DNA from: a virus
Lineage: Duplodnaviria; Heunggongvirae; Uroviricota; Caudoviricetes
Length of the DNA: 37,514 nucleotides
Strand: one strand, 5' to 3'
IMG/VR virus record: IMGVR_UViG_2660238346_000033
In this document: positions 3,756 to 9,654 of the stretch, piece after piece
How positions within the stretch are numbered: the stretch's first letter is position 1
Layout of the letters: each line of letters opens with the position of its first letter
Translations under genes and position numbers: made by a program
Notes under the pieces: model-generated
What the model saw: only the letters and a program-made list of their open reading frames with translations
Told to the model about the DNA's origin: nothing
Databases searched by the model: none

Positions 3756-3912
3756 CTGTTCCCTCCCTGTGCGGCATGGTCGCATGTGCGTGCGGAGGGG
3801 GTTACTGCTTTTTGTTGTCGCCGGGTCGGGAGAACGGCGCAGGGGTGAGATTACGCGCGTGGTGGGTGATGATTGTTGCCGAATCATTTAACGGATACAA
3901 GGGGCTAAAGCT

Positions 3913-5097
3913 ATGAGTGAAACTCGTTTTCATGGTGCCCGTGTTACGGAAAGTACCGACCTGGTAACAGCGATTAACGATGTTGATTCCAGCGTTATCG
4001 GTATCGTGGCAACGGCGGATGATGCGGACGCGAAGCTGTTCCCGCTGAACAAGCCCACACTGCTGACCCGCGTCAATGACGTGCTGGGAAAATGCGGGAC
4101 AACGGGGACGCTTTATCGTGCGCTTAAGGCCATCGCAGACCAGGTGAGCACAAAGGTGATCGTCGTTCGCGTGGCTGAACACAAAGAAGAAAACGGAAAG
4201 ACGCAGGATCAACTGGTTATCGGTGGTTCTGAATCTGACGGCAGCTATACGGGGATGTATGCGCTGCTTGTTGCAGAGCAGGATGAAAGCATCGGATACC
4301 GTCCGCGTATTCTGGCCGCGCCGGAGCTGGACACGGAGGCGGTGACAAAATCCCTGTGCGTGATTGCGGGTAAACTGCGCGCGTTTGTGTATGCCACATG
4401 TCATGGTTGTAACACGATGGCTGAGGCGATTACCTACCGCCAGAAATTCAACGAACGTGAGGTGATGCTCTTATGGCCGGACTTCATCGCCTACAACCCG
4501 AAAAGTGGCAAAAACGAAACGTTCCCCGCGCCTGCTTATGCGTGCGGCCTTCGTGCGTACATTGACCATGAGCAGGGCTGGCACAAATCGCTGTCCAACG
4601 TTCCGGTTAAAAATGTGCTGGGGATGTCGAGGCATGTGTTCTGGTCGTTACAGGCCGAAGACAGTGATGCCAACAGCCTCAACAACAAAGAAATCACGAC
4701 CATTATTCGTCGTAACGGGTTCCGCTTCTGGGGCAACCGCACACCGGAAACGAACGCCTACATCTTTGAGGTGTATACCCGAACCGCACAGGTGCTGGCT
4801 GATTCAATTGCGGAAGCGCAGTTTGAAACCATCGACAGTCCACTGACACCTGCGAACGTGAAGGATGTTATCAGCGCCATCAGAGCAAAACTGGATTCGC
4901 TGGTTACTGTCGGGAAACTGATTGGTGCGGAGTGCTGGTATGACGTGGTGGATAACAGCACCACGGGTTTACGTCAGGGGCGTGTGCGTATTCGCTACAA
5001 ATATACGCCCGTTCCTCCGCTGGAAGACATGGAGCTTTACCAGTCGTTTACTGATGAATTCTTTGGTCCCGCATTTGCGGTGCTGGGAGGTGCCTGA
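3913..5097 (+). CDS. FI: contractile tail sheath protein (P2 gpFI-like)
   Basis: 394-aa ORF MSETRFHGARVTESTDLVTAIND... typical of P2-family sheath proteins; stop overlaps FII start. Confidence 0.9.
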   Translation: MSETRFHGARVTESTDLVTAINDVDSSVIGIVATADDADAKLFPLNKPTLLTRVNDVLGKCGTTGTLYRALKAIADQVSTKVIVVRVAEHKEENGKTQDQLVIGGSESDGSYTGMYALLVAEQDESIGYRPRILAAPELDTEAVTKSLCVIAGKLRAFVYATCHGCNTMAEAITYRQKFNEREVMLLWPDFIAYNPKSGKNETFPAPAYACGLRAYIDHEQGWHKSLSNVPVKNVLGMSRHVFWSLQAEDSDANSLNNKEITTIIRRNGFRFWGNRTPETNAYIFEVYTRTAQVLADSIAEAQFETIDSPLTPANVKDVISAIRAKLDSLVTVGKLIGAECWYDVVDNSTTGLRQGRVRIRYKYTPVPPLEDMELYQSFTDEFFGPAFAVLGGA

Positions 5098-5609
5098 TGG
5101 CTGTACCAAAACATCTTCGCTTTTTTACGTTGTTTGTGGATGGTGAAAACGAAGTGGGTAAAGTGACATCCGTCACGCCACCCAAACTGACGCGCAAAAC
5201 CGACAGCTATCGTGGTGGTGGCATGATGGGGGCGGTAAGTATTGATCTCGGTCTGGACGACTCCGCGCTTGATGCGAGTTTTGTCATGGGGGGAGCTGTT
5301 CGTGCGCTGTTCCTTAAATATGGCGGCACGATTGACGGCACGCTGCTGCGTTTTGCGGGTGAATACTACACCGATGCAGAAAGCGATCTGTATGAAATCG
5401 AGATGCGCGGGCGTCTGACGGAAATTGATATGGGGGAAGCCAAACAGGGCGAAGCCACATCACACACTTACGCTGTCAAAAACACCTACTACAAGCTGAT
5501 CGTTAACGATCGCCCGCTGTGGGAAATCGACCTGTTGAACCACATCTACCGGAAGGACGGCAAGGACATTGTGCCTGACCGTATCCGTTCCGCGCTTGGG
5601 CTTGGCTGA
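5097..5609 (+). CDS. FII: tail tube protein (P2 gpFII-like)
   Basis: 170-aa ORF immediately after the sheath gene, ATG overlapping the FI stop. Confidence 0.9.
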   Translation: MAVPKHLRFFTLFVDGENEVGKVTSVTPPKLTRKTDSYRGGGMMGAVSIDLGLDDSALDASFVMGGAVRALFLKYGGTIDGTLLRFAGEYYTDAESDLYEIEMRGRLTEIDMGEAKQGEATSHTYAVKNTYYKLIVNDRPLWEIDLLNHIYRKDGKDIVPDRIRSALGLG

Positions 5610-5664
5610 TAAGTAATATGCAGGCGGCGCAGTGCGTCGCCTTTGACTGAAAAGGAGACAACTG

Positions 5665-6039
5665 ATGAAAGACATCGATACTGAAACCCGGAATAACACC
5701 GTGGCGGATGATGTGACGGCAGGTGAGGATATGGCTGTCGAACGTGGCGTAAAACTGACCCGACCAATTGAGCGTGGTGGCGAAAAAATCACGTATGTGG
5801 AGATCACCGGGGCTATTGAGCAGGCTGGATCCCTGCGTGGTCTGTCGCTGTCTGATGTGCTGAATCTGAAAGCGGATACCATGTTTACGCTGTTGCCTCG
5901 CGTGACCTCGCCACGACTGGATGAAGTGATGATTAAAAAAATGTCGTCACGCGATTTTATTCAGTTGTGCGCAGTGGCTGTAAATTTTATGAGCGAGCCA
6001 GACTCTGGCGCGAAGAGCGTGCAGGAGACGGCAGCGTAA
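5665..6039 (+). CDS. E: tail assembly chaperone (P2 gpE-like)
   Basis: Position between tube and tape-measure genes; overlapped by a -1 frame ORF lacking its own start, as in P2 E/E+E'. Confidence 0.7.
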   Translation: MKDIDTETRNNTVADDVTAGEDMAVERGVKLTRPIERGGEKITYVEITGAIEQAGSLRGLSLSDVLNLKADTMFTLLPRVTSPRLDEVMIKKMSSRDFIQLCAVAVNFMSEPDSGAKSVQETAA

Positions 6040-6203
6040 TCACCCTGGTGTGCTTTGAGCACATCGAAGATCTGGTGGCGGATATTGCCGCCATTTTTAA
6101 CTGGTCGCCCGCCGAAATCTTCATGATGACGCCCGGCGAAGTGGTTAGCTGGCGCGAGCGGGCGGCACTTCGCAGCGGGAATGCAGATAATGAAGACTCT
6201 TGA
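5937..6203 (+). CDS. E' extension: -1 frame reading frame expressed as an E+E' fusion by programmed frameshift
   Basis: The -1 frame is open from 5937 to 6203, with no ATG or RBS; candidate slippery heptamers AAAAAAA (5935-5941) and AAATTTT (5982-5988) lie in the overlap; its end overlaps the tape-measure start. Confidence 0.5.
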   Translation, partial: KNVVTRFYSVVRSGCKFYERARLWREERAGDGSVITLVCFEHIEDLVADIAAIFNWSPAEIFMMTPGEVVSWRERAALRSGNADNEDS

Positions 6204-8997: not shown

Positions 8998-9003
8998 GGA
9001 GTC

Positions 9004-9498
9004 ATGGCCATGATGATGATCTACGGCATGTTTGTTTTTGAGCTGCGCACATTGCCGCATCAGCAGTTACAGCAAAACAAAAGCTGGCGGTATGTGAAAA
9101 ATGAACGCGTTAACCGTTCAGCAAGCTGGCAGTATATCGGCGCAGGTGATGATCGCATCGTGCTTTCCGGCGTGCTTTATCCTGAAATTACAGGTGGCGA
9201 AGTGTCGCTTTCATTGCTGACCACGCAGGCATATACAGGACGGCCCTGGCCTCTGATTGATGGTGTCGGGCAGATTTACGGCATGTATGTACTGACTGAA
9301 ACGAATACGACCCGTTCCGAGTTTGATCGCTACGGTAAGGCGAAAAAGATAGAATTTTCACTGACTCTTGAACGCTGTGATGAGGATTTGCGGGAGCGCC
9401 TGCAATCCTCATCGTTCAGCGATATGTTGTCCGGCTTCAAAGATAAGGTGACATCATCCCTTAATAGCGCGGCCAGCTCAGTTAAGGGGCTGCTCTGA
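9004..9498 (+). CDS. U: tail protein (P2 gpU-like)
   Basis: MAMMMIYGMFVFELRTLPHQQL... resembles P2 gpU; GAGGA RBS. Confidence 0.85.
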   Translation: MAMMMIYGMFVFELRTLPHQQLQQNKSWRYVKNERVNRSASWQYIGAGDDRIVLSGVLYPEITGGEVSLSLLTTQAYTGRPWPLIDGVGQIYGMYVLTETNTTRSEFDRYGKAKKIEFSLTLERCDEDLRERLQSSSFSDMLSGFKDKVTSSLNSAASSVKGLL

Positions 9499-9574
9499 TT
9501 TAACGTATGTCGCCAATTTCCTGATGAAGGTGACTGGCGACTTGCTGTTGTATGTCCTTCTCAGAAAATTGTTT

Positions 9575-9603
9575 TTGAATAATAAACAACAGGATTTTAT
9601 AAT
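9575..9603 (+). promoter_or_regulatory. sigma70-type promoter for the acetyltransferase cargo gene
   Basis: TTGAAT (9575-9580), 17-bp spacer, TATAAT (9598-9603), about 50 bp upstream of the AAGGAG RBS. Confidence 0.6.
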
Positions 9604-9654
9604 CTCTTAACCTTATAACATGTGTGGTCTGAAATAATAATTAAGGAGATTATC

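Follow-up and report, generated by a model that had tools for sequence, protein, structure and literature searches.

In the P2 record, FI-FII-E-E'-T-U-D is annotated as a single operon (the F operon), which is co-directional with V-W-J-I-H-G and has ogr next to D. The canonical order H-G-FI-FII-E-T-U-D is also found in Kapieceevirus and Firavirus, in Burkholderia phage AP3 (Aptresvirus), in Mannheimia phage phiMhaA1 (Baylorvirus) and in a Pseudomonas phage. This order is widespread and presumably represents the ancestral state. The subject of this work is the tail gene region of a prophage contained in IMG/VR virus record IMGVR_UViG_2660238346_000033, a stretch of 37,514 nucleotides that is called here, at its full length, the window. 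The window resembles the P2 F operon in its homologous genes, their equal internal order, the type of activator site located upstream of FI and the position of ogr beside D. The difference lies in orientation, since in the window the block from FI to U is inverted and D and ogr stand alone. Very likely, the window holds a P88-type prophage in which a fixed inversion, reaching from the pF promoter to U, has split off D and ogr, and in which the gap between D and FI would act as a bidirectional late promoter.

A second P2 locus is needed for comparison. The divergent promoters pP and pO are served by one annotated site (3057-3087), with transcription starts at 3127 (+) and 3016 (-), 55-56 bp on either side. 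When indexed by hand from the edges of the 22-bp site, their -10 hexamers, GAAACT and TAGCCT, are situated at offsets 54-59 and the starts at offset 66. Transcription from a pair of this type depends in both directions on Ogr and on the RNA polymerase alpha subunit, and hosts of the rpoA109 type block the late transcription of P2.

Gene assignment in the window was based on Pfam scans and on the map of open reading frames (ORFs). The relevant features are the following:

2343-2603, - strand: ogr homologue, Ogr/Delta C4 zinc finger of 86 amino acids (PF04606, E-value 5e-14)
2646-3755, - strand: D, tail/baseplate hub protein of 369 amino acids (Phage_GPD, PF05954), divergent from FI and apart from the F operon
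3913-5097, + strand: FI, tail sheath (PF04984, PF22671, PF17482)
5097-5609, + strand: FII, tail tube (PF04985, E-value 4e-45)
5665-6039, + strand: E, tail assembly chaperone (weak PF10109 match)
5967-6203, + strand: ORF of E', the -1-frame extension of E to 6203 (Phage_P2_GpE, PF06528)
6181-8997, + strand: T, tape measure protein (PF10145, E-value 2e-56)
9004-9498, + strand: U, tail protein, last gene of the inverted block (PF06995, E-value 3e-39)
10271-10849, - strand: tail fibre assembly gene (Pfam)
10849-12732, - strand: tail fibre gene H (Pfam)
further right of H, - strand: I, J, W and V

The Pfam matches thus give a complete contractile tail module of the P2-like type (Peduoviridae), composed of sheath, tube, E/E', tape measure, gpU and gpD homologues. 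The Ogr translation shows a CX2C...CX4C cysteine pattern, and E and E' are assigned as a putative tail assembly chaperone pair from their Pfam matches and the -1 frame. The identities that the first-pass annotation had given to FI, FII, E, T, U, D and ogr are therefore borne out, as are the position of FI-U (3913-9498) on the + strand, that of D and ogr on the - strand, and the single P2 operon, co-directional with H and G, that served as its template. Its further statement that every other late gene is on the - strand holds for the fibre and baseplate genes and fails for P and Q (23148-25945), which are on the + strand.

The longest ORF of D extends over 2646-3887 and, starting at 3887, would encode 413 amino acids. 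This version was rejected, given that the P88 annotation has a shorter D with a separate small ORF across its gap and that a strong ribosome-binding site precedes 3755. This site, GGGAGGG, is found at 3761-3767, and 3755 is the likely start of D. With this start, the 157-bp gap between D and FI (3756-3912) is as first described.

The window is best classified, from its nucleotide matches, as a P88-type P2-like prophage of the genus Xuanwuvirus, family Peduoviridae. Escherichia phages 500465-2, P884B11, P88, PhiR44_2 and Chuche and Citrobacter phage Shae_phiSM each align to 2300-9504 in one contiguous place, with 91-96% DNA identity. With respect to P88, identity is 93% over 84% of 2300-10900 and 95.8% over 72% of 10900-35800; both figures are approximate and are not formal intergenomic distances. 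The threshold for a genus is about 70% nucleotide similarity in the practice of the International Committee on Taxonomy of Viruses. The window D shares 98% identity with that of P88 and 48-50% with that of P2. Gene order and strands (ogr-D / FI-FII-E-E'-T-U / fibre genes) are equal in the window and in the Xuanwuvirus phages P88, P884B11, 500465-2 and Shae_phiSM, and the annotations of P88 and Shae_phiSM place D on one strand with the fibre and baseplate genes and sheath to U on the opposite strand. The stretch between U and the fibre assembly gene differs, however: it holds a DNA invertase and an invertible fibre segment in P88 and Shae_phiSM and a low-GC (guanine plus cytosine) acetyltransferase gene in the window. 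The window fibre protein H is only about 62% identical to its Xuanwuvirus counterpart.

The distribution of this layout was established by tblastn of D against phage records and by a scan of one genome per bacterial species, which yielded 47 loci in which the window proteins were then placed by local tblastn. FI-FII-E-T-U is opposite to D in every locus that holds both D and FI, in at least 20 genera of Enterobacterales, the identity of D being at least 62%. The hosts include Salmonella, Serratia, Symbiopectobacterium, Edwardsiella, Erwinia, Enterobacter, Pantoea, Kosakonia, Pectobacterium, Brenneria, Klebsiella, Raoultella, Citrobacter, Kluyvera, Yokenella, Rouxiella and others. In the loci of the species-wide scan, D is 64% to 98% identical, and where ogr could be found it comes after D. 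H, I, J, W and V, where they fall inside the locus, are co-directional with D, except in one rearranged contig.

The layout also extends to another genus. Salmonella phage SEN5 has the fibre genes on the + strand, U-T-E-FII-FI on the - strand and D on the + strand, that is, the same inverted arrangement. SEN4 and SEN5 (Senquatrovirus) share with the window the inverted FI-U block and a divergent D-FI gap that is also of 157 bp, but their D is 63% and their FI 55% identical to those of the window. A 901-bp probe of the D/FI junction matched as one uninterrupted piece in 1357 of 5426 complete E. coli genomes, about a quarter of them, and nearly always with at least 95% identity.

Judged by its distribution, the inverted FI-U block is an old, fixed and clade-defining character of a large group of Enterobacterales prophages. 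The D proteins of the phages with canonical order are at most 52% identical to that of the window, and the inverted block marks one derived clade. Of the explanations initially offered for the orientation of the block, a lineage-specific architecture is the one confirmed: close and moderately distant relatives share the layout, and more distant P2-like phages are canonical. The 5.7-kb inversion also stands if it is read as an evolutionary event relative to P2. The proposed comparison with relatives shows that the arrangement is the norm among close relatives and is consequently not anomalous.

Two contigs labelled as Firmicutes, from Vagococcus sp. WN89Y (L007, 226 kb) and from a Planococcaceae metagenome-assembled genome (L048), encode a D that is 97% identical to that of this E. 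coli-type prophage, and the former carries the full tail block. Both are probably enterobacterial contamination.

The first-pass annotation had argued that D, being divergent from FI, needs its own promoter. This is sound, and a conserved candidate is present in the D-FI gap, which contains the following elements:

3756-3912, between the divergent genes: D-FI gap of 157 bp, candidate bidirectional late promoter region, its architecture conserved in 45 distinct relatives
3814-3835, no strand assigned: near-palindromic Ogr-type site GTTGT-N12-AGAAC, containing TGT-N12-AGA
3868-3873, + strand: predicted -10 of the FI operon, GATGAT, at offset 54 from the site edge, with a predicted start near 3880
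3776-3784, - strand: predicted extended -10 of D/ogr, TG-c-GACCAT, at the mirror offset 54, with a predicted start near 3769

The predicted -10 hexamer of D, GACCAT, occupies 3781-3776 with TG-c before it. The sites of the window were found by comparing the D/FI and P/O gaps by eye, followed by a search with the derived motif, whose 23-nt form, TGTTGT-N12-AGAAC, has exactly two copies in the window, one in each gap. In form, this motif agrees with the annotated P2 sites, which are GTTGT-N12-CCAAC in pF and GTTGT-N12-CCATC in pO/pP. Among the sites listed by a consensus scan there is no sigma-70 promoter for D within the gap.

For conservation counts the gap was taken from all loci, giving 45 distinct sequences. 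A hexamer of the form nAnnnT is found at offset 54 in 44/45 of them on the FI side and in 42/45 on the D side; at any other offset from 24 to 71 it is found in at most 9/45, and the gap flanks are otherwise only about 54% identical. On the D side, 41/45 sequences have the dinucleotide TG at offsets 51-52, as in an extended -10, against 1/45 on the FI side. In 12 of the 45 relatives the two outer half-sites, of 5 nt each, are perfectly reverse-complementary.

In P2 pP/pO one dyad-symmetric activator site lies midway between two divergent starts, and the D-FI gap, with its near-palindromic candidate site, likewise has predicted -10 hexamers at offset 54 on both sides. The gap differs in that it would drive D/ogr and FI-U, instead of P-Q and O-N-M-L, and in the TG extended -10 on the D side. 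Most likely, judging from these conserved elements, the D promoter lies in the D-FI gap itself. The simplest reading would be a bidirectional late promoter built like pP/pO, in which Ogr binding and both starts are predicted from this resemblance: one Ogr site (3814-3835) would be placed about 55 bp upstream of two divergent starts, one for FI-U and the other for D-ogr.

The small ORFs annotated as hypothetical proteins across the D-FI gap should also be mentioned. They are found in P88 (locus L001, 2529-2660) and SEN5 (locus L003, 8800-8952), the stretch concerned in the window is 3802-3933, and a similar call appears in RefSeq E. coli records. Those of P88 and SEN5 are on opposite strands relative to D and FI. 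Because their strands differ between phages, they were set aside as probably spurious annotation artefacts.

The second copy of the site lies in the gap between O and P, in a region whose features are the following:

23064-23085, no strand assigned: second Ogr-type site in the P/O gap, exact motif match
23118-23123: P-side -10, TAATCT
23030-23025: O-side -10, CATCAT, given an O start at 22993
23148-24899, + strand: terminase gene P, divergent from O, as in P2
24899-25945, + strand: portal gene Q, divergent from O, as in P2

For the scaffold gene O, the probable start is the internal ATG at 22993 (MANEKK..., which aligns with the N-terminus of P2 gpO) and not 23026. With this start the P/O gap (22991-23148) fits the shared-site geometry of P2. 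A third motif-like site, CGTGGT-N12-AGAAC at 18608-18630 (-), has two mismatches, is inside coding sequence of the lysis region and lacks a -10 at offset 54, so it is probably due to chance.

Regarding the expression of the activator gene itself, ogr begins 42 bp downstream of the D stop (2603-2646), and the consensus scan listed no terminator-like site between the two genes. Both facts suggest that ogr is probably co-transcribed with D.

The proposed history of the locus begins with an ancestor of the P88 lineage, which would have inverted the segment from the pF promoter through U. As a result, FI-FII-E/E'-T-U now converge on the fibre genes, and D and ogr form a separate unit divergent from FI. 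Since a pF-type activator site belongs to the block itself and precedes FI, one breakpoint would be upstream of that site. The second would lie between U and D, genes that overlap in the P2 record. The first 12-18 residues of D (approximately) do not align to P2 D and are variable within the clade, which is consistent with a remodelled 5' end. The symmetry of the activator site would let the inversion split the operon and still keep D under the late activator. Whether the symmetric Ogr site made the inversion tolerable, with the bound activator recruiting polymerase in the opposite direction, so that the inversion could then become fixed, stands in our opinion at about an even chance.

Different observations weigh against this account of the locus. 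The leader predicted for D has only about 12-16 nt (about 14 nt with a start near 3769) and contains the ribosome-binding site. The published activator consensus is TGT-N12-ACA, as given in PMC3931495, and the window site TGT-N12-AGA matches it at 5/6 bases, with one mismatch; an exact search of the window for TGT-N12-ACA gave 7 matches against about 9 expected, none of them in either promoter gap. The 45 gap sequences are related, and the conservation counts are consequently of non-independent events. The D promoter, having an extended -10, could in part work without Ogr, and a sigma-70-like match (GTAACA-18-GATAAT) at 2783-2754 (-), inside the 3' end of D and about 150 nt upstream of ogr, may drive ogr separately as an early Ogr-independent promoter. 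Finally, an inversion in situ is not strictly separable from a homologous module inserted backwards.

The most serious alternative for the promoter accepts the layout as fixed and clade-wide and has D served by an Ogr-independent extended -10 in the gap or by another start. The TG motif kept in 41/45 sequences speaks for it, as such a motif can reduce activator dependence, and so does the position of ogr just downstream of D, since ogr must be made before Ogr exists. However, the mirror spacing is exact to the base pair in 42/45 sequences despite flanks of about 54% identity, and it equals that of the annotated P2 pP/pO, which is hard to explain if the site is irrelevant; this alternative is regarded as rather unlikely. 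The replacement of the module, in which a homologous FI-U cassette of another P2-like phage was inserted backwards, is improbable. P2-like phages have mosaic genomes, and there are reports of rearranged late operons, for instance for Smp131 (PMC3931495), but FI, FII and U are about as diverged from P2 as the flanking D and the distant P, with no discontinuity, and the pF-type site of the block is found where it would be expected. Identity to P2 is 43-46% for FI/FII/U, 50% for D and 44% for terminase P, and this similar divergence favours inversion in place without proving it.

Two further explanations concern the reality and stability of the orientation. A site-specific invertase that actively flips the segment, as in the G segment of Mu or the C segment of P1, is suggested by the DNA invertase that P88 and Shae_phiSM encode directly after U. 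Nevertheless, the window has an acetyltransferase at that position, and the P88 invertase adjoins duplicated, oppositely oriented fibre and fibre-assembly genes, which are its expected target. Every relative shows a single orientation: the canonical junction, searched for with a synthetic probe made of the last 400 nt of U and the first 400 nt of D, was found as one place in 0 of the 1413 genomes that carry both halves. An inverted-repeat search found no repeats bracketing the block at its junctions (the best pairs, of 16-30 nt and 70-94% complementary, were elsewhere), and no gix/hix-like (Gin/Hin-type) AAACCNNGGTTT crossover core is present anywhere in the window. Active flipping is thus highly improbable, and from its sequence context the FI-U block is not considered a switchable segment. 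As for the misassembly that the first-pass annotation had also contemplated, in which the assembler placed the 5.7-kb block backwards, nothing beyond the difference from P2 speaks for it. The D/FI junction is contiguous in the 1357 complete E. coli genomes and in independently deposited phage genomes, it is present in at least 40 loci from other genera, and the block is without long flanking repeats able to confuse an assembler. Contiguity in complete genomes and the absence of the canonical junction refute this explanation, whose probability is practically negligible.

The arrangement itself has been in public annotated phage records since the deposition of P88. Term searches of the papers on P88, SEN4/SEN5 and the Serratia PP4 prophage and a general literature search gave no discussion of the inversion or of the arrangement, and no description of the palindromic-site/inversion scenario was found in the literature searched. 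The layout is ordinary for a very common prophage type, and the only mildly new element is the proposed shared-site D/FI promoter. A shared-site divergent promoter would explain the late control of D and ogr after their loss from the F operon. If true, it would be a second promoter of the pP/pO type, and it would shorten the distance between a late promoter and ogr from more than 6 kb to 1.1 kb, with a tighter positive feedback. A palindromic activator site would likewise make the splitting of an operon by inversion selectively neutral, and the D-FI gap would offer a simple, testable example of regulatory symmetry buffering genome rearrangement. In addition, P2 and 186 should not be taken as the sole template for P2-like prophages, because the common P88-type layout is then flagged as anomalous.

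The other end of the inverted block, where U converges with the fibre genes, contains the following features:

9509-9541, + strand: stable hairpin that directly follows U and may terminate the FI-U operon (RNA fold -25.4 kcal/mol, z = -4.2)
9575-9603: sigma-70-like promoter (consensus scan)
9655-10227, + strand: hexapeptide acetyltransferase, low-GC cargo gene (weak Hexapep match; 'serine acetyltransferase' in RefSeq), outside the tail block
10235-10264, no strand assigned: strong hairpin terminator with a 13-bp stem between the convergent acetyltransferase and fibre-assembly genes (z = -5.7)

The cargo module (9575-10264) has a GC content of 0.37-0.42. In 495/5426 E. coli genomes U, the acetyltransferase gene and the fibre assembly gene follow one another contiguously, and the unrelated phages JL22 and Ro157c2YLVW have a similar gene beside their fibre genes. 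Since this place is occupied by the invertase segment in P88 and by the acetyltransferase gene in the window, and in many members of the clade U and the fibre-assembly gene are separated by only about 90 bp, the convergent junction can be interpreted as a cargo slot, comparable by analogy to the P2 G-fun(Z)-FI slot.

Another ORF of the late region, at 16274-18154 (-), encodes 626 amino acids with a DUF1737, a SASA-type sialate/carbohydrate O-acetylesterase domain and a DUF6645. By these domain matches, the prophage carries candidates for both an acetyl-adding and an acetyl-removing enzyme.

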